Positions 4,791-35,147 of a stretch of DNA of 64,000 nt are shown one piece after another (within the stretch, counting starts at the first letter, position 1; the number at the start of each line of letters is the position of its first letter). The notes below the pieces were generated by a model that was given only the letters and a program-made list of their open reading frames with translations, was not told the DNA's origin and did no database searches. Origin of the DNA: an uncultured Candidatus Rokubacteria bacterium (GTDB taxonomy: Bacteria > Methylomirabilota > Methylomirabilia > Rokubacteriales > CSP1-6); contig CAWBMV010000003.1 in the NCBI GenBank assembly GCA_963789955.1, positions 126,011 through 190,010 on the forward strand, given 5' to 3'. The position numbers and the translations under genes were made by a program.

Positions 4791-6201
4791 TCAGTGAGCG
4801 CCGGTCCCGCGCAGAACCTCCGGGAGGGTCGCCAGCAAAATCCGCAGATCGAGCGCGAGCGACCACTGGTCGACGTACTCGAGATCCATTCGCATCCACT
4901 CGTCGAAGTCCACCGTACTCCGGCCGCGCGTCTGCCATAACCCGCTCAGGCCTGGGCGCATGGCAAGTCTTCGACGCTGCACGCCCTTGATCCGGCTCGC
5001 CTCGTACAGGGGCAGCGGCCGCGGGCCGACGAGGCTCATCTCGCCCTTGATCACGTTAATGAGCTGAGGCAGCTCGTCCACGCTGTAGCGTCGGATGAAC
5101 CGGCCGAGCCGAGTTCGACGGGGATCGTCACTCACCTTGAAGACCGGACCGTTCATCTCGTTGAGATGCAGGAGGTCGCTCCGTCGCTGCTCCGCGTCCG
5201 CGACCATCGTGCGGAGCTTGTACATCTCGAAGGCCCGACCGTGAAAGCCGCTACGAATCTGACGGAAGATGACCGGGCCGCGTGAGGAGACGCGGATGAG
5301 CGCTGCTACGACTCCGAGCAGCGGGAGCGTCAGAGCGAGAATGAGCACGGCACCGACGACGTCGATCGCACGCTTGACAGCGAACGCGCCCTGACGCGTG
5401 AGGGTCGGGGAGACACCGTAGAAGGGTAGGGTGAAGAGCTCCTCGACGTACGAGTGCGCGTGGGCAGGCCGGTAGAGGTCGACCAGCACACGCGCGTCCA
5501 CGCCGAGGTTCTCGCAGGCCTCCAGGGCCTCGCTGAGCCGATCGAGGCGGTCGGCCGGGACCGCGAAGAAGACCTCGTCGACGACCACGTCCTCCTGGAG
5601 CAGATCCGGAAGGTCCTGCAGGGTGCCGATGACCGGAACGCTGCCGACGCTTCGCACCGCGTCGGCCGGGTCCACGCTCAGGCAGCCGCGCACCAGCCAG
5701 CCCGCCTCTGGATAGCGCCGCAAGGACGCGATCAGCCGCTCGGCGCGCTCGTCGGTGCCCACCACGATGGCGACGTGCGACCAGCGTTCCCCGCGCCGGC
5801 GAAGCCACGCCAGCACTAGGGTGCGCTCGACCCAGAGGCCGACGGCGCTGACACCGGTGAAGAGGAGCAGGAGGCTGCGATTGATGTCGCCCTCCCGGGC
5901 GAAGAACAGCGACGCGGTCACCAGCAGCAGGCCGATGATGTTGACCCTGGCCACCAGCCATGCGCGCGAGCGCGCCATCCAGCCAAGGCCGTAGCCACCG
6001 AAGGCGGCGAGCAGGACGACCCATACCGGCACGATCGAGTCCGAGCAGCCAGAGGTAATGCGCGAGCGGGCCAGCGTTTCGCGCGAGCGGATTGTTGAGG
6101 GCCACTCGCACTGCGTACGCGCCCAGAAGCGAGCCGAGCAGCACGCAGGCGTCGGCGACGGCCAGCCGCAGGGCCCACATCGCGCGGCGCTTGCCGAGCA
6201 C
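4791..6201 (-). CDS. Initiating polyprenyl phosphoglycosyl transferase (WcaJ/CpsE-type sugar transferase), frameshift near 6035-6040
   Basis: N-terminal TM segments in ORF 5251..6201 continue in ORF 4791..6032. C-terminal motifs KRAIDV, YKLRTM, DDPRRTRLGRFIRRYSVDELPQL, GEMSLVGPRP, PGLSGLWQ and DLEYV. Confidence 0.9.
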
Positions 6202-7313
6202 TAGCGGGCCTCGCTCAACACTTCGTGAAAAAGCTGCTCGTATGCGTCCGTGACCGACTCCCAGGAGTAGTGCTCGCGGACGCGTTCCCGCGCGCGTTCT
6301 CCGGTCTCTTGCACGATCGCTGGATCCTTGAGCAAGCGTTCCAGAACCGTCCGGAGGCTCGCGGCACCGACGGAACCCTCGTAGCTGAACCCGGCGGCGG
6401 CGATCGTCTCGAGATTCTCCGGAGTATCATTGACGACGACGCACCGACCGAGCGCCATCGCTTCCAGGAGCGCCGGATGGGTGCCGCCGACCTCGGAGGT
6501 TTCCACGACACAGTAGGCGTTACCGGCCAGCTCGCGGTACCCTTCGCCGAAGAGGTAGCCCGTGAAGATGACTCGGGGGTCCGTCGTAGCCCGGAGCCGG
6601 TTGATGTACGGGGCGGCGTAGGGAGCATCGCCGACGATCACGCACCGGAAATCCGTGGCGAGCCCGACAAACGATTCCACGAGGTGATGGGCGCAGTTCT
6701 CGGGAACCAGCCGGCCCACGAAGAGGATATACCGGCCCGGGACGAGCCCGTACTGCTCGAGGTATCGGCCCGGCGGTACGCTCATGGGCTCGGCGCCGTA
6801 AGCAATGTACGTCGGGGACGGCGCGCCGTACCGGGCGAGGTAGTACTCCTGAACCCGCCGTGAGTCGGTAACCACTCGATGCGGAAAGCGCATGGCCCAG
6901 CGCTCGGAGGCTCGAATGTACCACCGCGCCACGCGGCCCCACTTCTTGCGCTTCCAGTCGAGCCCATCGACATTGAGAACCACTCGCTGGCCGGCCAGAC
7001 GCGGGATCCACGTCACGATGCTGCAGCCGACGTTGAAGAACAGGGCGATGTCGTACCTCTGGGACAACGCGTGGAAGGCCGAGAGCAGGCCGTGCGTGAT
7101 GGTGTCGAGGTGCTTGCTGCGGATGGTCGGGAGCTTGACCAGGCGCATTCCGCGATACGCGCTGCCCTTATAGGTGATGTGGGGAACCCGGCAATAGACG
7201 GTGACGTCGTGGCCGCGCGCCGCGAGCCTGGTCCCTAACTCCTCGGCGCAGGTTTCGAACCCGCTGTAGCTTGCCGGCACGCCACGCGTGCCCAGCATAC
7301 CGATACGGATCAC
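6201..7313 (-). CDS. GT4 glycosyltransferase (DUF1972-type N-terminus)
   Basis: IGMLGTRGVPASYSGFETCAEEL, NVDGLDWKRKKW, FVGRLVPEN and GGTHPALLEAMA. Likely GTG start at 7313; stop overlaps the next start. Confidence 0.9.
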   Translation of the reverse strand: MIRIGMLGTRGVPASYSGFETCAEELGTRLAARGHDVTVYCRVPHITYKGSAYRGMRLVKLPTIRSKHLDTITHGLLSAFHALSQRYDIALFFNVGCSIVTWIPRLAGQRVVLNVDGLDWKRKKWGRVARWYIRASERWAMRFPHRVVTDSRRVQEYYLARYGAPSPTYIAYGAEPMSVPPGRYLEQYGLVPGRYILFVGRLVPENCAHHLVESFVGLATDFRCVIVGDAPYAAPYINRLRATTDPRVIFTGYLFGEGYRELAGNAYCVVETSEVGGTHPALLEAMALGRCVVVNDTPENLETIAAAGFSYEGSVGAASLRTVLERLLKDPAIVQETGERARERVREHYSWESVTDAYEQLFHEVLSEAR

Positions 7314-7651
7314 AGACAACGCGGTCGCGAGGCCATGGAGCGCCCCCAGGTGACGAAAGCTCAAAAAACGAGCACAACGTGGACACCGGCGCATCCACGG
7401 GCTCGCGTGAGAGTTGGTGGCGAAGTGCCGACCTTTTACCACGATACCGACGGGCGTTCAAGCGATCGGCGAAGGCGCACGGGGCGCAACTGGCGAAATT
7501 TTGCGCGTGAACGGGCACGGCTCGCAAAAAAGCCTGACCGGTGCTATCGCTTGCCCCGTTCCGCGTATTCCAGTAGTTTCAAGCGCATGCGCAGGCTAGC
7601 CCGCCGGTTTGGGTTTCGCAGGCCACACCGATCGGTTATCCTCGGAGACCG

Positions 7652-7912
7652 ATGTCCCCGTCTGACGTCGGGATTGAGGCAGAGGTCGTTGCGATCGTGA
7701 AGCGCATCAGCCGCCAACCGGTCGAGCCGAGCGCCGAGAGTGACCTAGCGCTCGACCTCGGCTTCGATTCCATGCGCGTCTTCGAGTTGATCGCCGCGCT
7801 CGAGGATCGCTTCGACGTCTCGATCCCATTGAACGACATCGAGACGATCCGGACCGTCGCTCAGGTGGGCGAGTACCTTCGCGACCTGATCGAGCGGCCG
7901 GCTGGATGTTGA
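7652..7912 (+). CDS. Acyl carrier protein
   Basis: 86 aa, acidic, DLGFDSM phosphopantetheine site, LEDRFDVSIP; overlaps the FAAL start. Confidence 0.92.
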   Translation: MSPSDVGIEAEVVAIVKRISRQPVEPSAESDLALDLGFDSMRVFELIAALEDRFDVSIPLNDIETIRTVAQVGEYLRDLIERPAGC

Positions 7913-9585
7913 TGATCCGGACAGTCGCGCAGGCGCTCGACGACGCCGCGGCCGGCTCCGGCGGCTTCACGTTCGTCCGCGACAACGATCGCGAGCTCGT
8001 AACGCCGTTCAAGGTGCTGCGCGACTCGGCGCTTGCCGTGGGGGGCGCACTGCGCGCTCGTGGCCTCGATCGGGGCGACTGTGTCGCTCTCCTGATTCCG
8101 GAGGCCGATGGCTTTCTCACCGCCTTTCTTGGCGTTTCGCTGGCCGGTCTCGTGCCGATCCCGCTCGCGCATTCTCTCGACATCGGCCGGCTCGGCGCCG
8201 ACGTCGAGAAGGTCGCGTCCTTCCTTCGTGTCGCCGGCGCGCGCGCGATCGTCACGAGCTCGCGCCTGCTCCCGTCGCTTCGCCCGTTGCAGTCGGTCGC
8301 GCCGACCGTGAAGCTCGTGGCCCCATGGAATGATCTTACCGGACCGGCGTTGGGAGCATCGGAGCCTGCCGACCCCGACGCGCCCGCGCTGCTCCAGTTC
8401 ACCTCGGGCTCCACGTCGCAGCCGAGAGGTGTCGTCCTCACTCACGCCAACCTCTCCACGAACGTAGACGCGATCAGTGGGCCCCACGGCCTGGGGCTCG
8501 ACCACACGGATATCGCTGTCAGCTGGCTGCCTCTGTTCCACGATATGGGCCTCATCGGCGTGGCCCTGTGTACGCTCTACGTCGGGTGCCGCGGCGTGTT
8601 CCTGTCGCCGGCGGAGTTTCTGAAGCGACCGGTGTCCTGGCTCCGTGCCATCACCCGGTATCGCGGCACGGCCAGCTTCGCTCCGAACTTCGCCTATGAG
8701 ATGTGCGTGCGGCGGGTCAAGGATGCCGAGCTAGACGGTCTCGACCTGGCGTCGTGGCGCGTGGCCGGCTGCGGTGCAGAGCCGATCCAGGTGGCCACAC
8801 TCCAGGCCTTTGCCACGAAGTTCGCGCACACCGGATTTCGCGCCGCGAGCCTGGTCGCCGCGTACGGCCTGGCGGAGCACACGCTCGCCGTCACCCTTGC
8901 GCCGCGCGATCGTGGCTTGCGCGTGGATGCCGTTCGCGCCCCGGAGCTGATCGCCCACGGGCGCGCCGTGCCCTGCTCCCCCGATTCTCCCGACGCTTCA
9001 CGCCTCGTCGGTTGCGGCCGACCATTCCCAGACCACGCGCTCCGAGTGGTCGACGACGACGGCCAGCCAGTCGGGGAGCGCATCGTCGGCGAGATCCTCG
9101 TGTCCGGGCCTTCGGTGATGCGGGGTTACGTGAGCGCGCCGGACGCGACTGCCGGTGTCGTTCGAGAGCGCTGGCTCCCCACGGGCGACCTTGGGTATCT
9201 GGCCGACGGAGAGCTCTTCGTCTGCGGCCGCCGAAAGGAGATGATCATCGTCGGCGGTCGCAACTACTTTCCCCAGGACATCGAGCGAGTCGTGGATGAG
9301 GTGCCGGGTGTGCGTGCGGGGGGCGTGGCCGCGTTCGCGGCAACCGCCCCGGGACACCCAGACAGAGCGGTCTTGGTTGTCGAGACTCGCGGGCCGGTGT
9401 CTGCGGACGCGCTTCAGGCCGAGGTGCGGCGCCGGGTGCTCCAGGCGACTGGCCTCGCCGTTGACGAGATCGTCCTCGCGTCAAACGGGACGATCGACCG
9501 AACGACCAGCGGCAAGCTCCGCCGGGCCGAGTTGCGCCAGCGATACGCGGCGGGGACGCTGGTTCCTCTAAGCGAGCGCGGGTGA
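7906..9585 (+). CDS. Fatty acyl-AMP ligase (FAAL)
   Basis: LLQFTSGSTSQPRGV, SWLPLFHDMGLIG, APNFAY, AYGLAEHTL, TGDLGY and TTSGKLRR. FAAL-type insertion between AEHTLAVT and LVGCGRP. Confidence 0.9.
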   Translation: MLMIRTVAQALDDAAAGSGGFTFVRDNDRELVTPFKVLRDSALAVGGALRARGLDRGDCVALLIPEADGFLTAFLGVSLAGLVPIPLAHSLDIGRLGADVEKVASFLRVAGARAIVTSSRLLPSLRPLQSVAPTVKLVAPWNDLTGPALGASEPADPDAPALLQFTSGSTSQPRGVVLTHANLSTNVDAISGPHGLGLDHTDIAVSWLPLFHDMGLIGVALCTLYVGCRGVFLSPAEFLKRPVSWLRAITRYRGTASFAPNFAYEMCVRRVKDAELDGLDLASWRVAGCGAEPIQVATLQAFATKFAHTGFRAASLVAAYGLAEHTLAVTLAPRDRGLRVDAVRAPELIAHGRAVPCSPDSPDASRLVGCGRPFPDHALRVVDDDGQPVGERIVGEILVSGPSVMRGYVSAPDATAGVVRERWLPTGDLGYLADGELFVCGRRKEMIIVGGRNYFPQDIERVVDEVPGVRAGGVAAFAATAPGHPDRAVLVVETRGPVSADALQAEVRRRVLQATGLAVDEIVLASNGTIDRTTSGKLRRAELRQRYAAGTLVPLSERG

Positions 9586-9595
9586 GGGGAGTCCC

Positions 9596-10834
9596 GTGAC
9601 CCAGCGGAGCTTGTCCGGCGGCGATCTGTTCGACAAGTTGCGGGCCCTCGCAGTGCGCCGAGCGGAATTCGGGACCGAGGCCGCCTGCCCCGGTGACACC
9701 ACCATCGACGAGGTGCTGAGCGCCTCAGAGGTCGTCATTCGCGGACGGCGCACGCTGATGCTCGGCTCGAACAACTACCTCGGTCTGACGTTTCACCCGG
9801 ATGTGCGTGCGGCGGCGCGTGATGCCGTGGATCGTTACGGCATCGGCACCACGGGATCGCGCGCCGCCAACGGGACGCTGGCGATCCATACGGCTCTCGA
9901 GCGGGACCTCGCGGGCCACTTTGGCAAGCGCCACGCCATCATCTTCACGACCGGCTACCAGGCGAACCTTTCCGTCATCGCCGGGGTCTGCCAAGCCGGG
10001 AACGTCCTGCTCGTGGACGCTGACAGCCACGCGAGCATCTTCGATGGGGCTCGGCTCTCGGGCGCGACGACGATCGTCTTCCGGCACAACGCCCCCGAGG
10101 ATCTCGCGCGAAAGCTGGCACGATTACCGAGCGGGAAGCGAGACCGTCTGGTCGTGGTCGAGGGCGTGTACTCCGTCCGAGGCGACGTCGCCCCGCTCAA
10201 GGACATCGTCGCGGTCTGCCGCGAGAATGGCGCCTATTTGCTGGTGGACGAAGCGCACTCGTTCGGCGCCTACGGTGCACGTGGTCTGGGCGTGGCGGAG
10301 TCCGAGGGTGTTCTCGACGACGTCGACTTCGTCGTCGGGACATTTTCGAAGGCACTCGGCGGCATCGGCGGCTTCTGCGTCTCCGATCGGTCGGAGCTCG
10401 AGAGCCTCCGTTTCCTGGCGCGGAGTTACGTCTTCACCGCATCAGGTTCGGCGGCGATGATCGAGGGTGTTCGAGCGGCGCTCCGGGTGATCGCGCACGA
10501 CCCGTCGCTGCGCGAGCGTCTCTGGGCGAACACGAGACGGTTGCGGGCGGGGCTCCAGGCCCTCGGCTGCACCGTCGGGCAGATCGAGTCGCCGATCGTC
10601 TCGATCCCGGTCGGCAACGAGGTGGCCGCGATCACGCTGTGGCAGCGTCTCCTCGACGCGGGCATCTATGTGAACATCATGCTGCCCCCGGCTTGTCCCC
10701 CCGATGCATGTCTGCTCCGCGCGAGCTGCTCGGCGGCGCACACCGCCGGGGAGATCGATCACGCGGCGGCCGTGATCTCACGAGTCGTGCGCGAGGCCGA
10801 CGTCAAGCACGCGGCCGGCACCGAGAGCGACTAG
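9596..10834 (+). CDS. spt: Serine palmitoyltransferase-like alpha-oxoamine synthase (PLP)
   Basis: LGSNNYLGLTFHPDV, GTTGSRAANGT, TTGYQANL, DSHASI, DEAHS, GTFSK (PLP Lys) and YVFTAS. ACP+FAAL context matches bacterial SPT loci rather than bioF or kbl. Confidence 0.8.
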   Translation: MTQRSLSGGDLFDKLRALAVRRAEFGTEAACPGDTTIDEVLSASEVVIRGRRTLMLGSNNYLGLTFHPDVRAAARDAVDRYGIGTTGSRAANGTLAIHTALERDLAGHFGKRHAIIFTTGYQANLSVIAGVCQAGNVLLVDADSHASIFDGARLSGATTIVFRHNAPEDLARKLARLPSGKRDRLVVVEGVYSVRGDVAPLKDIVAVCRENGAYLLVDEAHSFGAYGARGLGVAESEGVLDDVDFVVGTFSKALGGIGGFCVSDRSELESLRFLARSYVFTASGSAAMIEGVRAALRVIAHDPSLRERLWANTRRLRAGLQALGCTVGQIESPIVSIPVGNEVAAITLWQRLLDAGIYVNIMLPPACPPDACLLRASCSAAHTAGEIDHAAAVISRVVREADVKHAAGTESD

Positions 10835-10850
10835 GCTCTCCCCGGGCCGA

Positions 10851-12158
10851 GTGCTTCAATCGAAGCGTGACGGGCTCATTCTGTGTAGCGCGATCGTTCT
10901 GTCAAATCTCCGTGCTCTAAGCTTTTTCCCCCGGTTTCCCGATCCCTCGGCGCTGCTCGGAAGCGCATGGATCGAGATCGCCCTCTGGTTCGGCACGGCG
11001 CTGGTCGTCGCACACACCCTGAAGCGAGAGAATCTGCTCCCCGGATACCTGTCCCTCTGCCGCAGGAACTGGCTACTCGGTGTCTTTGTTTCGCTGGCGC
11101 TTGTCTCGACCTCGTGGTCACTCGATGCGGCGGCGACGTCATTTCGCGCCCTGGAGTTGCTCTTAGCGACCGTGGTCGCTGCCTACATCGGAACGCGCTA
11201 CGACCCGAAGCAGATGCTGGAAATCCTCTTCTGGGCGGGCGCGATCTTCCTCATTCTGTGTATCGGGATCGTGTTCGGCCTTCCGACAGAAGGACAGATG
11301 CACTCGAGGCCGGAGTACCGTTCGTGGCGTGGCGTCTACTGGCACAAGAACCATTTGGGGAGTATCGCGGCCCTGGTCAATGTCGTTTCGTTGTGTCGCA
11401 TGCTCATCGCCTTCGAGCACCGCACCGCCGACTGGCTCGGTGGCCTGTTCTATCTGCTCTCGTTGGCCGCTGTATATTTCTCATACTCCGCGACCGGCGG
11501 GGTCGTTCTGATCGTTCTGCACGGCTTCCTGTTGTGTGTCTGGCTGTGGATCAAGACGTCCCATCGCTGGCGGGCATGGCACTACTACGTTGCGCTTGGC
11601 ACCGTGGTTTCGGGATTGGCGTGGACCGTGGCGAACGCCGACAGGGTCTTCAGCATCTTCAATCGCAGCCCAACGATGTCGGGAAGGGTCGATCTCTGGA
11701 ATTACCTCTTGAAGGACGTCGTTCCGCAACGCCTTTGGTGGGGGCACGGGTTCGGAGCGATCTGGACGGTCGAATCATTCCGCGTGGGCGCAGGGGAGCG
11801 TGTTCACTGGGGTAAACCGGCGGTGATTGCCGACAACGGCTTTCTCGATATCCTGCTGCACCTGGGTATCTTCGGTCTGCTGATATTCCTGAGCGTTCTG
11901 ATGGTCGCCTCGGTTCGATCGTTCCGGTACGCGCGCGCCGGTAGGACATTGACCGACTTCTTCCCGCTGTTGCTGATGTTCTACGCGATCGCCGGGAATC
12001 TTGCCTTCAGTCTGTTCATGGAGACGGAGCTTTTCGTCTGGATCCTGATCGTGATCGTGCTCTTCGAGACAACGGCGCGCTCGGATCCGGCCGAACTTCT
12101 GGCTATCGACACGCACGGTCGTGCCTCTGCACGCCACGAATCACCCCATCTGACCTGA
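10851..12158 (+). CDS. O-antigen ligase/polymerase family (Wzy_C) membrane protein
   Basis: About 11-12 TM segments; WRGVYWHKNHLG, SGRVDLW, WGHGFGAIW and DNGFLDILLHLGIFG. Confidence 0.85.
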   Translation: MLQSKRDGLILCSAIVLSNLRALSFFPRFPDPSALLGSAWIEIALWFGTALVVAHTLKRENLLPGYLSLCRRNWLLGVFVSLALVSTSWSLDAAATSFRALELLLATVVAAYIGTRYDPKQMLEILFWAGAIFLILCIGIVFGLPTEGQMHSRPEYRSWRGVYWHKNHLGSIAALVNVVSLCRMLIAFEHRTADWLGGLFYLLSLAAVYFSYSATGGVVLIVLHGFLLCVWLWIKTSHRWRAWHYYVALGTVVSGLAWTVANADRVFSIFNRSPTMSGRVDLWNYLLKDVVPQRLWWGHGFGAIWTVESFRVGAGERVHWGKPAVIADNGFLDILLHLGIFGLLIFLSVLMVASVRSFRYARAGRTLTDFFPLLLMFYAIAGNLAFSLFMETELFVWILIVIVLFETTARSDPAELLAIDTHGRASARHESPHLT

Positions 12159-12352
12159 TACCGGATACCGGCTATGCTGACATTTGAGTCACCCCTCATC
12201 CTCGTCCAAATGGGGCCCGGACTTGGCGTCCATTTCGTGATTCGGTACTCTGAGCGAACATGGTAGGCATGAGAGTGCAGGCCGTTCGGGCAGCGTGGTT
12301 CCCGCGCGCCGGCGCGGTGGTAGCCTGCCGGAGCTAGCGCTCTCCCCACGCG

Positions 12353-14638: not shown

Positions 14639-14655
14639 AACTGACCGGGGCGCCT

Positions 14656-16230: not shown

Positions 16231-16359
16231 ACGCGGTCAGGTGGACCACCTCCCTGGGTCGGGGATCTCGGGACGGACGTGATGAGCCGGACCGGATCAT
16301 ACCGAAAAGTGTACTCGTACGCGGAATGTCAGCGCGAATAGGCGTAAAATCTTCGATCG

Positions 16360-19177: not shown

Positions 19178-19196
19178 TCGCCCAGTCCCGGCCAGC

Positions 19197-22767: not shown

Positions 22768-22819
22768 GGAGCCCGATATTATCACCGGGTGCTGGGGCGA
22801 CGTGGTATGACACAGAGTC

Positions 22820-25515: not shown

Positions 25516-25557
25516 TTGGAACGTCTCGACGAAGGCCGCGCGTCGATCGTGACGGAA

Positions 25558-26286: not shown

Positions 26287-26387
26287 GCCTGAAGTCTAGC
26301 CGCACTTTCCTACACTGGCAAGGCGATGGCCCATGAGCCGACGACGATCGACCGGGATAGCGCCCGGGCCCATCAGTCTGGTGTCCT

Positions 26388-27372: not shown

Positions 27373-27424
27373 CAATGGTTTCCGCATTGCGCGGAGTGGC
27401 GCGAAGAGCCTAAGGCGCGTGTTT

Positions 27425-28138
27425 TCAGCGGTGCGCCAAGAGCCGACGGAATTCCGCGAGCTCGCGCGGCGGCACGTCCGACCGTTCGCGGAGCGCGGCG
27501 TCGACGCGGCCCGGGTCGTCGTCGATCGCGCGCGCGGTCTTCGCGATGTCGCCGACGATGCGCGTCGTCACCTTCATGGCTCGGGGCGCCACGACCGCGT
27601 GGAACAACCGGGCCAGCGCTTCGAACGCGGCGTTGTCGATCCGGACGAAGCTGGCCATCGCCGGCGTGATGAGGCTCTTGCCGTCTGCTTGCGGCTTGAT
27701 GGTGTAGTCGAGGAGCACCACGACGCGCCCGTGGATCGCGGGCAAAACCTGTGGTTGGTAGCGGCCCTGCAGATAGAAGATGCGGCTGCCTCGCGTCGCA
27801 TACGCGATCCGGAACCGCACCAGGGCTCCCGCGGTGTCGTCGAGCCAGAGCCCATCGGGCTCACGCCAGATCCGATAGCGACCGATCTCGAGTGCCCGGA
27901 TCACATGTGTCGCGAAGTCAGGGTGATCGAGCAGGTATTCGAACACGTCGTCCCGCACGAGAAAGGATTCGCCGTTCGACTGCGCAGTAACCGACGCGTT
28001 CTCGGTGACCTGCTCCAGGCGAGCTCGCTCCGGCTCCGGCAGATCCGGGGGCAGCGCCGCCGTGGGCCAGGTCGCGAGGGCGCTCCCCACGAAGATGAAG
28101 AGCAGGCCGACACCGGCGGCTCCGACTCTGATGGTCAT
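27425..28138 (-). CDS. Hypothetical exported protein
   Basis: Signal-peptide-like N-terminus from ATG 28138, coding-like composition, divergent from the GNAT gene; no family recognised. Confidence 0.7.
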   Translation of the reverse strand: MTIRVGAAGVGLLFIFVGSALATWPTAALPPDLPEPERARLEQVTENASVTAQSNGESFLVRDDVFEYLLDHPDFATHVIRALEIGRYRIWREPDGLWLDDTAGALVRFRIAYATRGSRIFYLQGRYQPQVLPAIHGRVVVLLDYTIKPQADGKSLITPAMASFVRIDNAAFEALARLFHAVVAPRAMKVTTRIVGDIAKTARAIDDDPGRVDAALRERSDVPPRELAEFRRLLAHR

Positions 28139-28197
28139 CGCAGCGCGTCCAGTATACGTCGCTGACTTGATTCGGTAGTACGAGCTACACTCGGCCA

Positions 28198-29325
28198 ATG
28201 GCGCCTCTCGAGATCATTCGCGCCGAGACCGGGAGTGCCTTTCGCGCGTTCATCGACCTCCCGTATCGCCTCTATCGAGACCACCCGCACTTCGTGCCTC
28301 CCCTGCGGCGGGAGCGCCGCGATCTCTTCGACAAGGCGCGGCACCCGTTCTTCCGCCATGCCGACGGCGCATTCTTCCTCGCCCGCCGCGGCGGCCAACC
28401 GGTCGGCCGCATCGAAGCCATCGTCAATCACGCGCACAATCAGTTCCATGACGATCGGGTCGGGTTCTTCGGCGCGTTTGAAAGCGAAAACGACCGGGCG
28501 GTGTCCGACGCCTTGCTCGAAAGCGCCGCTCGGTGGCTCGGTGAGCGGGGATTGCAAGTCATGCGGGGCCCCGTCACTCACTCCACCAACGAGGAGACGG
28601 GGCTGCTGATCGAGGGGTTCGAGGAGCCACCAATGATCGGGATGCCCTACAATCCGCCGTACTACGCCATGCTGGTCGAGGCCTTCGGCCTCACCAAGGC
28701 CAAGGACGTCTACGGCTGGGAGATCCGTGCGGAACAGACGATACCTGAGAAGATCCACCGCGTGGCCGACATCGTGCGGAAGAGCACGAACGTCGTCGTT
28801 CGCCGGGCGAACTTCGCAGACTACGCCGGCGAGATTCGGCGGGCTATGGGTGTCTACAATGCCTCCTGGACGCGCAACTGGGGGTTCGTCCCGCTCACCG
28901 AGGCCGAGTTCGTTCACGCCGCCGATCAACTACGACCCGTCCTCGAGCGCTTCCCGGAAGGGGTGTTGTTGGCTGAGGTAGCCGGACGAGCGGTCGGTTT
29001 CTGCCTGGCCGCGCTGGACGTCAATCAAGCGCTCCGACGAGTGCGGAATGGGCGGCTCTTTCCGTTCGGGTTCTGGCATCTCTATCGCGGACTCCGGCGC
29101 GTCGACCAGATTCGCGTGATGGCGCTCGGTATTCTTCCCGAGTTCCGGCATCGCGGCATCGATGCGGTCATTTACCTCGAGCTCTTGAGTCACGGCCAGC
29201 GCCTCGGCTATCGGCGCGCGGAGATCGGTTGGACACTCGAGGACAACCGTGCGATGAATCGAGCGATCCTCATGGGCGGCCGTCATCACAAGACGTACCG
29301 CCTCTACGAGGCGCCGCTACCCTGA
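28198..29325 (+). CDS. bcerS: Tandem GNAT N-acyltransferase, bacterial ceramide synthase-like
   Basis: FIDLPYRLY..HPHFVPPL, HPFF, VGRI, GFFGAFE, MRGP...STNEETGLLIEGF, MPYNPPYY, NWGFVP, LGILPEFR and WTLEDN match the bCerS/YghO-type family; SPT in the same locus. Confidence 0.78.
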   Translation: MAPLEIIRAETGSAFRAFIDLPYRLYRDHPHFVPPLRRERRDLFDKARHPFFRHADGAFFLARRGGQPVGRIEAIVNHAHNQFHDDRVGFFGAFESENDRAVSDALLESAARWLGERGLQVMRGPVTHSTNEETGLLIEGFEEPPMIGMPYNPPYYAMLVEAFGLTKAKDVYGWEIRAEQTIPEKIHRVADIVRKSTNVVVRRANFADYAGEIRRAMGVYNASWTRNWGFVPLTEAEFVHAADQLRPVLERFPEGVLLAEVAGRAVGFCLAALDVNQALRRVRNGRLFPFGFWHLYRGLRRVDQIRVMALGILPEFRHRGIDAVIYLELLSHGQRLGYRRAEIGWTLEDNRAMNRAILMGGRHHKTYRLYEAPLP

Positions 29326-29439
29326 TGTAAGCCGTTCTGCTTGACATCGTTCCCTGCCTGCCATTAACTCGGGCCTACGCTCTCTCCAGCCGAGCCTCAG
29401 CGCTCGCTGGCCACTACCATTGGGTACGAGGGACATCGA

Positions 29440-30213
29440 ATGGGATCCTGTCGCGGCCGTGTGGCCTTGGTCACCGGCAGCTCGCGTGGACTGGGTCGAG
29501 TCATTGCACGGAAGCTGAGCGAGGCCGGCGCTGACCTGATCATCAACTATCGTCAGGCCGGTGGCCGCTCGGAGGCCCAGGCTCGAGCCCTCGCCAAGGA
29601 GCTCGTGGAGGGCGGATCCCGCGCGGTGGCCATCCAAGCCGATATCGGCCAGAAGGACGCCGTCGCCGCCATGTTCCAGCAGATCGGCGCCGAGTTCGGA
29701 CGGCTGGACATCCTCGTGCTCAACGCGGCGCGCGCTCCCTTCAAGAAGGCCGGCGAGCTTCTCAAGCGCGACCTTCTCGAGCTCGTCGAGACCAACTACC
29801 TCGGAAATGTCTACTGCATGCAGCAGGCTCTGCCGCTGATGCAGGGCCGCCCGGGTCACGTCGTGTTCATCTCCAGTCTCGGCAGCCGCTTCGCGCTGCC
29901 GAACTACCCGCTTGGTAGCATGAAGGCGGCCATGGAAAGCCTCGTGAAACAGTGGGCGACCGAGCTCGGGGATCGTCAGATCACCGTGAACGGCGTCACG
30001 GTCGGCCTGCTCAAGACGGATTCGCTGATCGTGCTGCGTCAGTACTGGCCCGGTGTGGAACGGCTGCCGCCGTCTGCGTTCGTCGAGCTGGAGGACGTGG
30101 CCGGAGTCGTGCTGTTTCTCTGTACAGACGCCGCGCGGAGCATCAGGGGCCAGAACCTCGTTGTCGACAACGGACTTTCCAACGAGCTCTTGCACTCTGC
30201 GCACAGTTCCTGA
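29440..30213 (+). CDS. SDR, FabL-like enoyl-ACP reductase candidate
   Basis: TGSSRGLG, LDILVLNAA and ISSLGSRFALPNYPLGSMKAAMESL (widened Y..K spacing as in SDR enoyl reductases). Confidence 0.75.
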   Translation: MGSCRGRVALVTGSSRGLGRVIARKLSEAGADLIINYRQAGGRSEAQARALAKELVEGGSRAVAIQADIGQKDAVAAMFQQIGAEFGRLDILVLNAARAPFKKAGELLKRDLLELVETNYLGNVYCMQQALPLMQGRPGHVVFISSLGSRFALPNYPLGSMKAAMESLVKQWATELGDRQITVNGVTVGLLKTDSLIVLRQYWPGVERLPPSAFVELEDVAGVVLFLCTDAARSIRGQNLVVDNGLSNELLHSAHSS

Positions 30214-30255
30214 CATCAGCGATCGCCTCATTGAGAGGAGGTCCACGAGGGGAGA

Positions 30256-30831
30256 ATGCCCGAGCCATTGATCAGCCAGGCCACGATTTATCGAGCGGTG
30301 CAAACCGCCATCGGCGACGCGCTGCAGATCTCCGAAGACAAGGTGATGCCCGAGAGCTCGCTCATCAAAGACCTCGGAGTGGAGTCGCTGGATCTCATCG
30401 ACATCAACTTCCGCCTCGAGCAAGACTTCAACATCGTGATGCCGCGCAAGTACCTCCTGGACCACGTGGAGGAGCTCTTCGGGGAGGGGACGGCGATCGA
30501 CGAACAGGATCGACTCACCGGCGCGGCCGTGACGATCTGGAACGCGCGGCTCGGGTCGGCCGGATCGGCCGTGCACGCGGGCATGTCGATCGAAGCGGTA
30601 CCGGCTCTCGTCACTCCGCACACGCTGGTCATGGTCGTCGAGGAGATCTTGGCCACCTGTCCGGCCACGTGCCCTGCTTGCGGGAAGTCGGCCTGGACGG
30701 TCGCCGATGGACGCGCCATCACCTGCGGCCAGTGCGGTGCGCGCGCGCCGCTCTTGGCGGGTGACGATGTCATCCGTCAGTGGCTCGAGGACTTCCGGGC
30801 ACGCGGTGGGCTGACGAGCCACACGCCTTGA
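30256..30831 (+). CDS. Extended acyl carrier protein with C-terminal Cys-rich (zinc-ribbon-like) tail
   Basis: DLGVESLDLIDINFRLEQDF PPant motif; tail CPATCPACG...ITCGQCG; 191 aa. Confidence 0.85.
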   Translation: MPEPLISQATIYRAVQTAIGDALQISEDKVMPESSLIKDLGVESLDLIDINFRLEQDFNIVMPRKYLLDHVEELFGEGTAIDEQDRLTGAAVTIWNARLGSAGSAVHAGMSIEAVPALVTPHTLVMVVEEILATCPATCPACGKSAWTVADGRAITCGQCGARAPLLAGDDVIRQWLEDFRARGGLTSHTP

Positions 30832-32135
30832 CCAGCGCGTCACGCCAGACACGGGATCGGCGGCGCGTTGTCATCACCGGCGTGGGGATGATCACCCCCC
30901 TGGGACGGAACGTGGCCGAAACGTTCGAGCGGGCTAGCCGGGGCGTCTCGGGAATTGACTACATCCGTCGCTTCGACACCCGCGGTCTTCCCGTTCGAAT
31001 CGGCGGCGAGATTTCGGACGAGTGGATCGTGCGGCCGCGCGCGGAATCGGCGGCGGCGCTCGAGAGCATGGCCTCCAGGGCGATCCGATTCATGTGGACC
31101 GCGGGCATGGAGGCGGCCGAGCAGGCGAAGCTCGACCAGATAGGTGATCGCTATCGGGTCGGTGTCGTCCTCGGCCATCACGGAGAGACCGCCGGCCTCG
31201 ACGATCTCGTCCGGATCTTTCGGGCGTCGGCCGGCGATGGTCGGTGGGACCCGGCCCAGCTCCGCGAGGGCGGCTACGACGTGTTCGCATCGATACGCCG
31301 ACGGGTCGACGTCGGACCGTCGCTGGTCTCGCGGGTGTTCGATTGTCGCGGGCCCAGCATTGGCATCGCCTCGGCGTGCGCCGCCGGCGGCCAGGCGATC
31401 GGTGAGGCCTACCGGCTCATCAAGTCGAGGCGTCTGGATGCCGCGCTGGCTGGCGGGTGCGAGGCATCGCTCACGTACCTGGGACTCTCGGGCTTCATAC
31501 TCCTGAAGGCCCTCACCGAGCACTATCACGCTCCATCGACGGCGTCCCGACCGTTCGATCGCAAGCGAAGCGGCTTCGTGATCTCCGAGGGAGCGGGCGC
31601 GCTCGTCCTCGAAGAGCTCACGCACGCCCGGGACCGTGGCGCATCGATCCTGGGCGAGCTCCTGGGCTATGGAGACTCCACGGACGCGTACCGCATCACG
31701 GACATCCACCCGCAGGCCGAGGGCGCCGTGCTGGCGATGGTGCGCGCGATCGAGGACGCCGGGATCGCGCGCGACAAGGTGGACTATATCAACGCGCACG
31801 GGACCTCGACCGTGCAGAACGACGCGCTCGAGACCCTTGCCGTCAAGCGAGTCTTCGGCGAGCGAGCGGCCTCTGTCCCGCTCAGCTCGAACAAGTCGAT
31901 GCTCGGTCACACCATCGGTGCGGCCGGGGCCATCGAGGCCGGTCTCACGCTCGAGGGCATCCGTCAATCGCTGCTCCTCCCCACGATCAACTACAAGACA
32001 CCGGATCCGCGATGCGACCTGGACTACGTGCCAAACGAGTCGCGTCGTGTTGCCCACCGGACCGCCCTCAGCAACTCCTTCGGGTTCGGCGGGCACAACG
32101 CCTCGGTTTGCATCGGCGCGTACGACGACGGCTGA
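30828..32135 (+). CDS. fabF: Beta-ketoacyl-ACP synthase II (intact C-H-H triad)
   Basis: RRVVITGVG, SACAAG, YINAHGTST, KSMLGHTIGA and SNSFGFGG; TTG start overlaps the ACP stop. Confidence 0.93.
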   Translation: MTSASRQTRDRRRVVITGVGMITPLGRNVAETFERASRGVSGIDYIRRFDTRGLPVRIGGEISDEWIVRPRAESAAALESMASRAIRFMWTAGMEAAEQAKLDQIGDRYRVGVVLGHHGETAGLDDLVRIFRASAGDGRWDPAQLREGGYDVFASIRRRVDVGPSLVSRVFDCRGPSIGIASACAAGGQAIGEAYRLIKSRRLDAALAGGCEASLTYLGLSGFILLKALTEHYHAPSTASRPFDRKRSGFVISEGAGALVLEELTHARDRGASILGELLGYGDSTDAYRITDIHPQAEGAVLAMVRAIEDAGIARDKVDYINAHGTSTVQNDALETLAVKRVFGERAASVPLSSNKSMLGHTIGAAGAIEAGLTLEGIRQSLLLPTINYKTPDPRCDLDYVPNESRRVAHRTALSNSFGFGGHNASVCIGAYDDG

Positions 32136-32599
32136 TGCGCTTCCTCTTCATCGACCGGGTCACGAGTCTCGAGCGAGGGCGTCGCATCACGGGGATCAAG
32201 TCATTCAGCTCGTCCGAGCCGTTTCTGGAGTCGCACTTCACCAGAACAGCCCTCGTCCCGGGCGTGCTTCTCATCGAGTCGATGGCGCAGCTTCTTGGTT
32301 GGCTGGCCAGCTATTCGTACGATTTCCGCTGCGTGGCCGTTCTGGCCCTCATCTCGGACGTGACGGTTCCGGCGGCCCTGAAGCCCGGAGCCCGCGTGGA
32401 GATCGAAGGCCGACTACTGTCCAGCACCGAGCGAGACTCGCTCGGTGCTGCCACGGCCACGGTTGATGGCCGGACGATCGCCCGGGTGGAGCGACTCATT
32501 TTGCACCACGTTCCACTTCCCAAAGGGGAAACCGCGCGGGAGTTCTTCCTCTACTACGCCGGCATCGACGACTTGTCGTCTCTCGAGCGTCCCGCATGA
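32135..32599 (+). CDS. FabZ/FabA-like hot-dog dehydratase
   Basis: MRFLFIDRV and HF....VPGVLLIESMAQ; ATG overlaps the fabF stop (TGATG). Confidence 0.88.
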   Translation: MRFLFIDRVTSLERGRRITGIKSFSSSEPFLESHFTRTALVPGVLLIESMAQLLGWLASYSYDFRCVAVLALISDVTVPAALKPGARVEIEGRLLSSTERDSLGAATATVDGRTIARVERLILHHVPLPKGETAREFFLYYAGIDDLSSLERPA

Positions 32600-33349
32600 A
32601 GATCGATCTCAGCGGGCAGGTCGCATTGGTCACGGGCGGCGGTCGCGGCATTGGTGGAGCCTGCAGCGTGACCCTGGCGCGACTGGGGGCAACGGTCATC
32701 ATCAACTACCGGCGCTCCCGCGACTCCGCCGAACGGCTCGAGAAGGACATCGTCGGTGAGGGCGGCAGCGGGCGCGCGTACCAGGCCGACGTGGCGGACC
32801 CCGGAGCGGTCGACGCGATGTTCCAGTTCATCCGCCAGGAATATCGACGCCTCGACATCCTGGTGAACAACGCGGGGATCGTTCAGGACACCCTGCTGCT
32901 CTCCATGACGCTGCAGGACTGGACGTCGGTCCAATGCCACCAATCTGACCGGCGCCTTTCTCTGCACGCGCCACGCCGTGGAAATGATGTTGCGGCAAGG
33001 CGGGGGCAAGATCGTCAATATCGCTTCGGCGAGCGCGGACGTCGGTGGACGCGGGCAGACCAACTACGCGGCCTCGAAGGGCGGGCTCGTGGCATTCAGC
33101 CGGGCGGGCGCCGTCGAGCTGGCCCGCAAGGGGATTCGCATCAACGCCGTGCTGCCCGGTATCATCGAGACCGACATGAGCCTGCCAGTACGCCAGCGGG
33201 CCGCGAACAAGCTGCTCGAGCGCATTCCGGCCCGTCGATTCGGCCGCGTTGACGAGGTCGCCAACCTGGTTGCCTTCCTCGTCTCGGATGCCTCGGAGTA
33301 CATCGTCGGACAGGCGATCGCCGTCGATGGCGGTCTCAGCGCCTCCTGA
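32596..33349 (+). CDS. fabG: 3-oxoacyl-ACP reductase, frameshift near 32933
   Basis: TGGGRGIG and NNAGI in frame 1; GQTNYAASK, PGIIETDM and VDGG in frame 2. Confidence 0.9.
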
Positions 33350-33360
33350 CGCGTCGGCCC

Positions 33361-33849
33361 GTGCGCTATTACCTCGTAGATCGCATATCGGAGTGGGAGC
33401 TCAACACGCGCATCCGCGGCATCAAGAATGTCGCTATGACCGAAGACTTCCTCCAGTATCACTTTCCGCGAAGGCCGACGATGCCGGGGGTGCTCCTGCT
33501 GGAGTCGATGACCCAGCTTGCCGGCTGGCTGGAGGCGGTCAGCTCCGAGTTTACGCGCTGGTTCCTGCTCGAGCACGTCACGAGCTGTAAGTTTTACGAC
33601 CTCACAGGGCCTGGCGACCGGGTCGAGTTCGTCGTCGACGCCATGCAGCCCGCCGAGGCGTCTCGCCGCCGTTATCGCGGAACCGGCAGCGTCGAGGGTA
33701 AGCGGCGTGTCGTCGCCGAGTTCGACGGGCAGGTGATTCCGCTCCACGACATCGACACCCCGTCGAGCCAGCGCCAGCTCTTCGAAGTGCTCACGAACAG
33801 CGCTACTTTCTCGCTCAGTCCCAATCCAGGTGTCGCGGGCCCCCCGTGA
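33361..33849 (+). CDS. Second FabZ-like dehydratase
   Basis: YYLVDRI, GIKNV and HFPRRPTMPGVLLLESMTQ. Confidence 0.9.
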   Translation: MRYYLVDRISEWELNTRIRGIKNVAMTEDFLQYHFPRRPTMPGVLLLESMTQLAGWLEAVSSEFTRWFLLEHVTSCKFYDLTGPGDRVEFVVDAMQPAEASRRRYRGTGSVEGKRRVVAEFDGQVIPLHDIDTPSSQRQLFEVLTNSATFSLSPNPGVAGPP

Positions 33850-35147
33850 CCGACCGAGTTCCCGCGATCACCGGCATAGGGTTGATTTCATCCCTCGCCC
33901 CATCCCTCGAGCGTCACTGGCAACGGATTCTTCAGCTCGCGACCGGTATTCGGCAGGTCAGCGGCGAGGACGTACCCCGAGCCCTTCGTTACGCGGGCCG
34001 GGTGGACGACGACGGGCTGCCGCCGGACACACCCCCCGAGCTGCTGAAGCAGAGACGCCTCATCAGCACTGGCTCGAGGCTCGGGCTCCGGGCCGTCGCC
34101 GAGGCCGTGCACGGGTCGAGCGTGGACCTGCTGCAGATGCCACCGGCGCGAAAGGCACTCTATATTGGCGCCGCTGACTACAGTAAGGACGACTACCAGG
34201 ACTTCTACCAAGCCTTCCGCGAGGCCGGTGTCAGCCCGGATCGGGCCGTCGACGCCGAACACGTCAACAGGGCCACGCTCCACACCGTCGACCCGTTCTT
34301 CCTACTCGAAGGCCTCACCAACAATCTGGTGGCGTTCGTCTCCCGCCGCTATCAACTCCAGGGACCCAACACAACGCTCGCCAACCATTCACCCTGCGGT
34401 GCCCAGGCGCTCGACCTTGCTTGCCGGAGCCTGCTTCAGGAGGAGGCGGATGTCGCGATCGTCGTGGGCGTCTGCGTCTGGAGCCGGTTCGTGTCCTTGT
34501 TCGATCTTGACGCGTTGGGGCTACTGTCTCAGTGCCGAGACGGAGCAAGGTCCTTCAGACCGTTCGACCACCGCAGGGACGGGTTCATTGCAGGCGATGG
34601 TGCCGCCGCGCTCGTCCTGGAGCCACTAGGGCGGGCACGCGCGCGAGGGGCCCGCGTACTCGGGTGCATTCGGGGCCTAGCCAGCTTCACGGACGCGAGC
34701 GATACGCGAAACGTGGGTGTGTCCGTAGAGACAACGCGTCGAACGATCACTGCAGCGCTCGACGAAGCGGGCACTCGTCCAGAGGACATCGCCTTCGTCT
34801 CGCCTCACGGAAGCGGTACGCGAGACGGGGATCAGGTCGAGCTTGCCGCGATCGGCGAGCTCTCCGAGCGTACCCGCGCAACGATCCCGATCTCGGGGAT
34901 CAAGCCATATACCGGCCATATGGGAGCGGCGAGCGATCTCACCGAGATCGCGCTTGCACTCATCGCGCTGGAGAACGGGTTGGCGCCAGCGACGCTCAAC
35001 TTCGAGACTGCGGATGCCGAGTTCAAGGACGTGGATATCGTCGCGCAGCATCGGCGCGTCGCAGGACGACACGCTCTCTCGATGAGCCAGGGACTCGGAG
35101 GCCAGTCGATCGCGGTCGTCGTCTCCGCCGGGCCGGGCCCGGACTGA
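33846..35147 (+). CDS. Ketosynthase-fold protein lacking the canonical catalytic Cys
   Basis: AITGIG, RPFDHRRDG, SPHGSGT and KPYTGHMG; the active-site loop reads ANHSPCGAQA versus ASACAAGGQA in FabF. Confidence 0.85.
   Translation: MTDRVPAITGIGLISSLAPSLERHWQRILQLATGIRQVSGEDVPRALRYAGRVDDDGLPPDTPPELLKQRRLISTGSRLGLRAVAEAVHGSSVDLLQMPPARKALYIGAADYSKDDYQDFYQAFREAGVSPDRAVDAEHVNRATLHTVDPFFLLEGLTNNLVAFVSRRYQLQGPNTTLANHSPCGAQALDLACRSLLQEEADVAIVVGVCVWSRFVSLFDLDALGLLSQCRDGARSFRPFDHRRDGFIAGDGAAALVLEPLGRARARGARVLGCIRGLASFTDASDTRNVGVSVETTRRTITAALDEAGTRPEDIAFVSPHGSGTRDGDQVELAAIGELSERTRATIPISGIKPYTGHMGAASDLTEIALALIALENGLAPATLNFETADAEFKDVDIVAQHRRVAGRHALSMSQGLGGQSIAVVVSAGPGPD

Follow-up and report, generated by a model that had tools for sequence, protein, structure and literature searches.

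A locus of 27 genes occupies positions 4791-35147 of the window, the whole 64,000-nucleotide stretch that was analysed (G000:C3:126011-190010, the terminal part of a 190 kb contig), and encodes a predicted pathway for the synthesis and export of a complex sphingolipid. The source metagenome-assembled genome, G000 (6.77 Mb in 38 contigs, 87.2% complete and 5.14% contaminated), belongs to the lineage Candidatus Rokuibacteriota, which is Methylomirabilota-like, and a 78% identical relative of one locus protein, a GNAT acyltransferase, bears the NCBI name Candidatus Rokuibacteriota bacterium. Rokubacteria are uncultured and abundant in soil, and we know of no account of their envelope chemistry. 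The genes were assigned by Pfam and NCBIfam scans of the window and, for one glycosyltransferase (GT) gene resembling GT2, by an Atlas look-up. An earlier note on this DNA had described the span as a ceramide locus with a private fatty-acid synthase (FAS). Every gene that it named was found in its place by Pfam, NCBIfam and Atlas, including its five glycosyltransferases (three GT4, one GT2-like and one PMT_2 enzyme of the GT-C type) and its seven FAS-type genes (29440-35147); it had overlooked one conserved, unnamed gene on the minus strand (27425-28198), which is counted among the 27. The G+C content is even over the whole span (0.63-0.69) and codon-position G+C is gene-like throughout. We read these genes as an accessory envelope-lipid locus with which a soil Candidatus Rokuibacteriota bacterium would make and export a complex sphingolipid alongside lipopolysaccharide (LPS), a reading to which we assign a probability of roughly 0.7.

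The entry to the predicted pathway is formed by three genes on the plus strand: a dedicated acyl carrier protein (ACP) resembling AcpR (7652-7912; PP-binding domain), a fatty acyl-AMP ligase or acyl-ACP synthetase (FAAL) resembling AasR (7906-9585; AMP-binding domain) and a serine palmitoyltransferase (Spt; 9596-10834). The ACP and FAAL genes overlap, and a 10-base gap separates them from spt. The ACP is 38% identical to the Escherichia coli AcpR of record L094, and the FAAL is 36.6% identical to E. coli AasR over 547 residues. Both are reciprocal best hits of their E. coli counterparts: AcpR as query finds the locus ACP as its sole match in the genome, and AasR ranks the locus FAAL first (329 bits, against 265 for the next). 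Passages of PMC9386255 describe AcpR and AasR as a pair that feeds acyl-AcpR to serine palmitoyltransferase (SPT), with the E. coli SPT preferring acyl-AcpR, and describe the ACP-FAAL-Spt triad for alpha-, beta- and gamma-Proteobacteria.

The Spt protein exceeds the cutoff of the SPT model NF047599 (525.4 bits; cutoff 500) and stays below those of bioF (331 bits; cutoff 426) and Kbl (292 bits; cutoff 460). Solved bacterial SPTs match it at 365-286 bits in the Protein Data Bank (PDB), compared with 204 for Kbl and 182 for BioF. A tree against BioF and Kbl, the check that the earlier note had proposed, places it with SPT. In this quick maximum-likelihood tree of 74 rows, the window enzyme is sister to the SPT of the E. 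coli BL21 type (SH-aLRT 100), and both lie within a 69-row clade (support 98) that leaves E. coli BioF and Kbl outside; the clade consists of enzymes from loci fetched by their GNAT homologue, the branches are long and the outgroup comprises just those two E. coli rows. Open reading frames (ORFs) longer than 520 residues or aligned over fewer than 320 were dropped from the tree, and the length filter removed the nearest Spt orthologues, those of G006, G008 and G009. The product of 9596-10834 is thus a predicted serine palmitoyltransferase.

The triad passes the 'BetaP' SPT model and is nearest to the E. coli type; its occurrence in a Rokubacterium may reflect gene transfer. A second Spt type, 44-46% identical and accompanied by neither ACP nor FAAL, was seen in the same genus or order at loci L099 (G040), L101 (G004) and L100 (G011). 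In G040 and G004 it lies within compact Spt-GNAT loci that contain PAP2_3 or hydroxylase genes, and in G011 it stands on the opposite strand beside the LptFG paralogue, as though one Spt module had replaced the other.

The candidate ceramide synthase is a GNAT protein of the bCerS/YghO family (28198-29325, plus strand), 33.5% identical to E. coli YghO over 98% of its length (E 1e-54). With YghO as query it is the sole match in the genome; among curated NCBIfam families none matched the protein, and no solved structure was similar to it by sequence. The annotated E. coli locus consists of lptF, lptG, a class I/II aminotransferase, an ACP, an epimerase, a fatty acyl-AMP ligase and yghO. The legend of Fig. 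9 in PMC9386255 gives the N-acyltransferase gene as "aca: CC_1154, yghO ECD_02850", and a passage of Zik et al. (PMC9393093) names the N-acyltransferase bcerS, CCNA_01212. We read CC_1154 and CCNA_01212 as one gene carrying tags from two Caulobacter strain annotations, and the link from the locus GNAT to bCerS runs through E. coli YghO and PMC9386255 rather than through the Caulobacter sequence itself. Among 80 loci of other phyla, gathered with an alignment of eight GNAT sequences, 65 have an Spt homologue within 10 kb of the GNAT gene (62 of them with at least 60% coverage). A Streptomyces plasmid carries aminotransferase, GNAT and epimerase genes consecutively, and two natural proteins of 777-780 residues (P0140 and P0239) fuse an Spt-like domain to a bCerS-family GNAT. 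Homology to YghO and linkage to Spt both bear out what had been called a bCerS-like GNAT, and by sequence the protein belongs to the YghO/CC_1154 (bCerS) family.

Several variants of this family were observed in passing. The N-terminal halves of P0140 and P0239 have as best model the CFB-type SPT (470-539 bits, below its cutoff of 640). A single protein of 784 residues (P0121) contains two GNAT units of the bCerS family, and tandem or duplicated GNAT copies also occur in loci L144, L154 and L165. Roseomonas plasmids of 320-440 kb carry homologues 36-38% identical; these matches mostly overlap genes labelled as dATP pyrophosphohydrolase or as nucleotidyltransferase-type, labels that may mislead. 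The E. coli 'plasmid' record L094 (NZ_MG591698.1; 354 kb) holds the normally chromosomal glc operon and yghO region and may be a misassigned replicon.

An export function is suggested by a fused LptF-LptG paralogue, LptFG2 (12353-14638, plus strand), which exceeds the cutoffs of both TIGR04407 (276.6 bits; cutoff 230) and TIGR04408 (290.3 bits; cutoff 240) and is syntenic with Spt in G006, G009 and G011. It is 41% identical to a second fused copy in the genome, located among housekeeping genes on contig C17. The F and G halves of LptFG2 score 238 and 308 bits against that copy but do not exceed 57 bits against E. coli LptF2/G2; the latter are themselves nearest to E. coli LptF and LptG. By these pairwise scores, used here in place of a tree, LptFG2 does not share descent with the proteobacterial LptF2/G2. 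It would be a functional analogue derived from a separate duplication, and the two lineages seem to have duplicated these genes independently. The genome has a single LptB above cutoff and a single LptC, both on C17. LpxC, LpxB, WaaA and LptD are also present, so LPS is very probably made by this organism as well. A search for lpx genes had been suggested in the earlier note; given their presence, the sphingolipid would coexist with LPS instead of replacing it, and would borrow LptB. In Caulobacter, LptF2/G2 are described in a preprint as required for sphingolipid transport and as binding the single LptB, and lptF2/lptG2 as occurring in many alpha- and gammaproteobacterial loci (Uchendu, Isom and Klein 2026, preprint 10.64898/2026.04.12.717747). 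Lpt-like export of sphingolipids had already been proposed for Caulobacter in a passage of PMC11324152, and one in PMC9386255 notes that E. coli also clusters its five ceramide genes with lptF/lptG. The Lpt-like route put forward for the window is not new, having been both proposed and experimentally supported in Caulobacter.

A second conserved block encodes a MsbA-like ABC exporter (22820-24547, plus strand; ABC_membrane and ABC_tran domains), a candidate lipid flippase, followed by a PAP2_3 enzyme resembling AUR1 and inositol phosphorylceramide (IPC) synthases (24547-25515, plus strand; PF14378 at 65.3 bits, cutoff 27), a candidate head-group transferase. The ABC stop codon overlaps the PAP2_3 start, and the pair is kept in relatives. 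Homologues of the PAP2_3 gene lie near GNAT and Spt genes in 17 of the 80 loci of other phyla. No solved structure was similar to the PAP2_3 protein by sequence. An AlphaFold2 (AF2) model built from 19 sequences (pLDDT 82.7) has as its first two Foldseek matches 9ivc_A and 9vj4_A, yeast Aur1 and an IPC synthase-ceramide complex (probability 1.00, TM-scores 0.52-0.61), with PAP2 phosphatases at E >0.1; the modelled fold is thus closest to Aur1/IPC synthases, and with the PAP2_3 domain it agrees with the AUR1-like PAP2 identified before. SSH and HYxxD motifs are visible in the sequence and presumably correspond to a motif of such enzymes. The next gene, on the minus strand (25558-26286; FA_hydroxylase, 66.9 bits), encodes a predicted fatty-acid 2-hydroxylase of the FA2H/Scs7 type. 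Its PDB matches are two yeast Scs7 entries only (E 5e-27 for 4zr1_A and 1.4e-26, residues 52-240), and it contains the histidine boxes HRFVFH, HGVHH and HHHLTHH. Homology and motifs place it in the FA2H/Scs7 family, as the earlier note had held.

Between the hydroxylase and the GNAT lie two genes. One is an extended short-chain dehydrogenase/reductase (SDR; 26388-27413, plus strand) that resembles HpnA (TIGR03466 at 206 bits; cutoff 367). Among 42 close loci, 22 have a gene of the CerR type, mostly scoring 125-150 bits against the Streptomyces protein, and in 21 of these 22 it stands between the hydroxylase and the conserved unnamed gene. The HpnA-like SDR fills that slot in the window and in its six nearest contigs (L103, L104, L111, L124, L127 and L137), and we read it as an in-place replacement of CerR.

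The other is the unnamed gene itself (27425-28198, minus strand), which is conserved in relatives and whose 257-residue product has an N-terminal hydrophobic segment and is predicted to be secreted or anchored. Its AF2 model is of modest confidence (pLDDT 66), and the top Foldseek matches are mostly Bet v 1/START/CoxG proteins at weak E values (4e-3 to 3e-2). Atlas gave the same fold lead at 0.80-0.81, below the level that counts; the Atlas cluster of the gene is commonest in Candidatus Rokuibacteriota. The protein may therefore have an SRPBCC-like fold, and that it binds lipid in the periplasm is a guess. The neighbourhood of a paralogue on contig C1 was uninformative. A plus-strand ORF over the same DNA (27362-28165) was rejected: its product is less well conserved in relatives than that of the minus-strand gene, whose codon G+C is gene-like.

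Seven genes of FAS type follow the GNAT gene, all on the plus strand. They encode an SDR like FabL or FabG, either an enoyl or a ketoacyl reductase (29440-30213; adh_short_C2 at 168 bits, FabL model at 194.7 with cutoff 328); an ACP (30256-30831; PP-binding at residues 14-68); a FabF-like ketosynthase (KS), KS1, with the catalytic Cys (30780-32135; fabF at 413.5 bits, cutoff 493.75); a FabZ-like dehydratase (DH1; 32135-32599; FabA domain) whose start overlaps the KS1 stop; a FabG ketoreductase (32596-33349) that is frameshifted near 32936 and falls into two ORFs covering profile positions 1-104 and 118-236; a second FabZ-like dehydratase (33361-33849; FabA domain at 53.6 bits); and KS2, a KS-like partner (33846-35147; ketoacyl-synt domains) with Ser in place of the catalytic Cys, as in a chain-length factor (CLF). 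This catalytic column is invariant, KS1 having Cys and KS2 having Ser in nine of nine sequences each. The 191-residue ACP is conserved over its full length in relatives, including a 100-residue C-terminal CxxC...CxxC extension that resembles a zinc ribbon. No FabD or FabH domain was found in the locus by Pfam or NCBIfam, and a housekeeping fabF-fabG pair lies on contig C16. The seven genes stand, but the type II FAS that they had been taken for does not: with FabD and FabH missing, Ser in KS2 and the FabL-like protein below its cutoff, the module is, as judged from its gene content, an incomplete elongation unit of the KS/CLF type and not a self-sufficient FAS. In the distant metagenome loci L163, L169 and L171, genes are found in the order FabG-KS-Spt-GNAT-SDR, indicating that a different lineage has also joined genes of FAS or polyketide synthase (PKS) type to ceramide genes.

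The remaining ten genes are mostly concerned with sugars. Upstream of the ACP, on the minus strand, lie a polyprenyl-phosphate hexose-1-phosphate transferase (PGT; 4791-6032; Bac_transf at 210.9 bits, TIGR03025 EPS_sugtrans at 370 with cutoff 295) and a GT4 with DUF1972 (6201-7442; Pfam), a 74% identical counterpart of which stands beside PGT and Wzy_C genes in G011. A membrane protein of the Wzy_C family of O-antigen ligases and polymerases (10851-12158, plus strand; 51.7 bits, eight hydrophobic segments), the Pfam domain of which fits a ligase or a polymerase alike, is inserted in the spt operon between Spt and LptFG2. Downstream of LptFG2 follow a frameshifted FAD-dependent oxidoreductase of the PRK07208 family (14656-16230, minus strand; NF005546 in two frames); a GT4 (16360-17538, plus; Glycos_transf_1 at 127 bits); a polysaccharide deacetylase (17535-18287, plus; Polysacc_deac_1 at 88 bits); a GT2-like enzyme of GT-A type with a DDD motif (18332-19177, plus; Pfam GT2 at E 0.0099, first Atlas match, at 0.99, a GT2 cluster); a LicD-family phosphotransferase (19197-19943, plus; 67.2 bits); another GT4 (19940-21034, minus; Glycos_transf_1 at 138.8 bits); and a PMT_2 membrane glycosyltransferase of GT-C type that resembles ArnT (21031-22851, minus; 36.6 bits, nine hydrophobic segments). 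The corresponding genes of relatives are different. G006 has a GT2, a DUF2079 gene, a UDP-glucose dehydrogenase, epimerases, an HldE-like gene and a methyltransferase, with no Wzy_C between Spt and LptFG; G009 has a GT87, a DXD transferase and PlsY between Spt and LptFG; and G011 keeps the series PGT-GT4-Wzy_C-LptFG-oxidoreductase, with Wzy_C beside LptFG2, adjoining the second Spt type. This layout, in which conserved genes for lipids and transport frame a sugar cassette that varies, resembles by analogy that of O-antigen loci.

The limits of the locus (4791-35147) are sound, since the flanking genes identified by Pfam are unrelated to the pathway: an S8 peptidase upstream and, downstream, genes for a CoA-transferase, a STAS protein, a metallo-beta-lactamase-fold protein and a CHASE2-SpoIIE protein. 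The last three (window 36460-40004) look like a partner-switching signalling set with a CHASE2-SpoIIE phosphatase; another STAS gene was seen close to the Spt-GNAT locus of Streptomyces, which we take as coincidence. Gene order was compared with that of relatives, as had been recommended, and the lipid and transport genes proved syntenic whereas the intervening sugar genes vary. The order ABC-PAP2-hydroxylase-SDR-unknown-GNAT-FabL-ACP-KS-DH-FabG-DH-KS is kept in close contigs, and in the congeneric genome G006 a single 28 kb contig carries ACP-FAAL-Spt-LptFG, then ABC-PAP2 and then the hydroxylase. The junctions from 7.6 kb to 35 kb are spanned by overlapping independent contigs, which makes the chimerism raised in the earlier note unlikely; the GT4/ACP junction near 7.5 kb is supported by the window alone. 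Of 201 genomes sampled from the phylum, 57 (34 of the 104 high-quality ones) contain genes of the GNAT family (E 1e-30 or better), a count that takes in G000 and two unpublished genomes, G081 and G166, and DNA of the locus is present in soil and rhizosphere metagenomes from many studies. The gene arrangement is not due to chance.

Homology and gene order, on which every step is based, suggest the following pathway. The FAAL would charge the dedicated ACP with a fatty acid, which Spt would condense with serine to 3-oxosphinganine, as AcpR, AasR and SPT do. The YghO/bCerS-type GNAT would add the N-acyl chain, the donor of which may be the product of the KS/CLF module carried on the zinc-ribbon ACP, as their adjacency in the operon suggests. 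The SDR in the CerR position would then reduce the 3-keto group, and the Scs7-like hydroxylase would 2-hydroxylate the N-acyl chain. The MsbA-like ABC protein would flip the lipid, the Aur1-like PAP2_3 enzyme would move a phospho-head group from a phospholipid to the ceramide, and the strain-variable sugar genes would add a glycan, a role suggested by their position between the two lipid blocks. Finally, LptFG2, driven by the single shared LptB, would extract the finished lipid towards the outer membrane; in the periplasm, the lipid may be bound by the secreted SRPBCC-like protein. Of the ceramide locus described in the earlier note, the core pathway is retained, with four amendments: the SDR is not a CerR orthologue, the FAS is incomplete, an Lpt-like route is already on record for Caulobacter, and the glycan decoration is a matter of gene position.

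Several observations weigh against this reading. The SDR is an extended SDR, as had been stated, but it is not a CerR orthologue: with the E. coli and Streptomyces CerR-type proteins as queries, paralogues on contigs C12 and C15 (68-72 bits) outrank it, and no match stronger than these two exists anywhere in the genome. Across 125 more distant loci, moreover, all 70 matched SDR ORFs near GNAT and Spt score higher with the CerR-type queries than with the window SDR as query, so that a role of this enzyme in reducing the 3-keto group is guessed from its position. The ABC protein falls below the MsbA equivalog cutoffs (MsbA_rel 549.7 bits; cutoff 780) and may flip a polyprenol-linked glycan rather than a ceramide, and the Foldseek E values of the PAP2_3 model are modest (1.7e-3 and 4.3e-3). 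An Spt at least 80% identical was found in only three of 40 relatives searched. The absence of KS1 or KS2 homologues near the GNAT gene in all 80 loci of other phyla means that the link of the KS module to ceramide depends on adjacency in one clade. The genome has four other Wzy_C genes, three of them 1-17 kb from PGT homologues, and since PGT and Wzy_C are typical of undecaprenol-linked polysaccharides, the sugar genes may serve a separate polymer.

The last two points also favour an alternative that we consider unlikely, namely that the locus is a mosaic. A ceramide-phospholipid core (ACP-FAAL-Spt, GNAT, SDR, hydroxylase, PAP2_3, ABC and LptFG2) would be interleaved with a cassette for an undecaprenol-linked polysaccharide or O-antigen (PGT, GTs, Wzy_C, PMT_2, LicD and deacetylase) and with a type II PKS- or FAS-like module that makes a lipid of its own, for example a polyene or alkyl product. 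The wholly different sugar genes of G006 and G009 and the lack of Wzy_C between Spt and LptFG in G006 agree with this, and the combination of a KS/CLF pair, two FabZ-like dehydratases and a ketoreductase is one that we take to resemble aryl-polyene cores. However, whatever their content, the sugar genes always stand between the two lipid blocks; Wzy_C is embedded in the run from ACP-FAAL-Spt to LptFG with gaps of 16 and 194 bases; and G011 keeps PGT, GT4 and Wzy_C beside LptFG2. In 29 of 37 close contigs the FabL-like gene comes directly after the GNAT gene and is read in the same direction, the remaining eight ending in or just after GNAT, and no Wzx, Wzz or OPX export genes were detected in the locus by Pfam or NCBIfam.

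The same genes permit a bolder interpretation, likewise improbable, in which the product of the locus may be an LPS analogue anchored by ceramide. PGT and the GT4 and GT2 enzymes would build an oligo- or polysaccharide on undecaprenyl phosphate, PMT_2 and LicD would add groups, and at the periplasmic face Wzy_C would join the glycan to the phospho-ceramide for extraction by the lineage-specific LptFG2 duplicate, while the private KS/CLF module would make the N-acyl chain and pass it to bCerS as acyl-ACP. If this were true, the sugar cassette that varies between strains would be to the sphingolipid what an O-antigen locus is to LPS.

It is very unlikely that the predicted Spt accepts an amino acid other than serine (cysteate, alanine or glycine) and leads to a sulfonolipid-like or 1-deoxy aminolipid. 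The family does contain such enzymes, one of the PDB matches (188 bits) is a cysteate-C-fatty acyltransferase and substrate choice cannot be read from the Spt scores; yet solved SPTs score far above the cysteate enzyme (365-286 bits), the SPT equivalog cutoff is passed and the nearest neighbour in the tree is an SPT that a passage of PMC9386255 reports to make 3-oxosphinganine.

Single-base frameshifts interrupt the FAD oxidoreductase, the SDR and FabG in the window. The extra base at 27211 in the SDR is missing from contigs of three soil DNA runs, each belonging to a different study; those at 14950, 15151, 15317, 15334 and 15566 in the oxidoreductase are each missing in two or three of three soil runs; and that at 32936 in FabG is missing in the sole soil run covering the site. 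In relatives, the SDR is uninterrupted in one frame in three contigs, FabG is in one frame in contig L107 and the oxidoreductase is a single ORF in G011. Since near-identical soil DNA lacks the extra bases, the frameshifts are private to this assembly. That they are true inactivating mutations of a decaying locus is barely credible: four or more single-base frameshifts occur in 30 kb and the locus is patchy among relatives, but the soil contigs, the intact SDR of the three related contigs and the gene-like codon-position G+C over the whole span all speak against it. A soil RNA library contains contigs of 275-369 bases that map to PAP2_3, the hydroxylase, FabL, KS1, DH1 and FabG, which is a weak hint of expression because such libraries may contain DNA; parts of the stretch were uncovered in that library. 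Elsewhere in the genome, the only other alpha-oxoamine synthase (BioF/Kbl-like; G000:C10:4998-6108; 36-38% identical to Spt) is in two pieces, a split that is probably another assembly frameshift.

As an accessory envelope-lipid locus, the gene set predicts a specific product, a 2-hydroxy-acyl phospho- or glyco-ceramide. The dedication of an LptFG paralogue to exporting sphingolipids seems to have arisen on at least two occasions, in Proteobacteria and here, which would support the Lpt machine as a general route for lipids to the outer membrane. The locus also offers candidates for open steps of bacterial sphingolipid synthesis: an Aur1-like head-group transferase with its partner ABC flippase, a CerR substitute, a secreted SRPBCC-like lipid carrier and a private acyl-chain factory beside bCerS. 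No description of these features for this phylum was found in the literature, where full texts were seldom checked; the supplement of PMC11334938 may list the phylum among Spt carriers.

The nearest known system is the Caulobacter region CC_1152-CC_1168, which comprises spt, acpR, cerR, aasR, bcerS, the cpg genes, LptF2/G2/C2 and the flippase CC_1166. As far as passages of PMC11324152, PMC9393093 and preprint 10.64898/2026.04.12.717747 describe it, the two systems share the AcpR-AasR-Spt route to 3-oxosphinganine and a bCerS-family GNAT, and also a private LptF/LptG paralogue without a private LptB, a candidate flippase, coexisting LPS and genes for anionic or glycosyl head groups in the same neighbourhood. 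In contrast to Caulobacter, LptF and LptG are fused in the window and derive from the fused housekeeping copy of their own lineage, LptC2 is lacking, an HpnA-like SDR takes the place of CerR, and an Aur1-like PAP2_3 enzyme stands where Caulobacter has a ceramide kinase and Cpg enzymes. The KS/CLF module, the Scs7-like hydroxylase, PGT, Wzy_C and the GT-C are additions. The yghO locus of BL21-type E. coli (lptF, lptG, spt, acpR, epi, aasR and yghO) has the same five ceramide genes with lptF/lptG, at identities to the window of 47.9% for Spt, 36.6% for FAAL, 38% for ACP and 33.5% for GNAT. It spans about 9 kb, without head-group, hydroxylase, ABC or KS genes, and its epimerase is of the CerR type, 29% identical to the window SDR over 216 residues.

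More distant are the compact Spt-GNAT-CerR loci of Ignavibacteriota, Gemmatimonadota, Acidobacteriota, Streptomyces and other Methylomirabilota, found also in G040 and G004. Their GNAT is 37-48% identical, Spt is adjacent and PAP2_3 occurs in 17 of 80; they differ in having the second Spt type (about 46% identical) and a canonical CerR-type SDR, and they have neither ACP and FAAL nor, within 10 kb, an LptFG paralogue or KS module. The likeness to yeast Aur1 and Scs7 lies in the best folds of the PAP2_3 model and in the match of the hydroxylase to Scs7 over residues 52-240. The PAP2_3 enzyme is only 16% identical to Aur1, and there is neither a Kei1 partner nor a cytochrome b5 domain. In rhizobia, the acpXL-fabZXL-fabF2XL-fabF1XL-lpxXL cluster serves the very-long-chain acyl group of lipid A. 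It likewise sets a private ACP, a dehydratase and two KS genes beside the acyltransferase that installs a special chain on an outer-membrane lipid. Homology to the XL proteins appeared only as weak NCBIfam matches. The window system differs in its predicted acceptor, a sphingoid base in place of lipid A, in a KS2 without the catalytic Cys and in an ACP with a zinc ribbon. Export of sphingolipid by an LptFG paralogue is already known from Caulobacter, from which the fused, lineage-specific version described here differs, and the locus as a whole is real, coherent and conserved, a variant of the known bacterial system for sphingolipid synthesis and export rather than a new kind.

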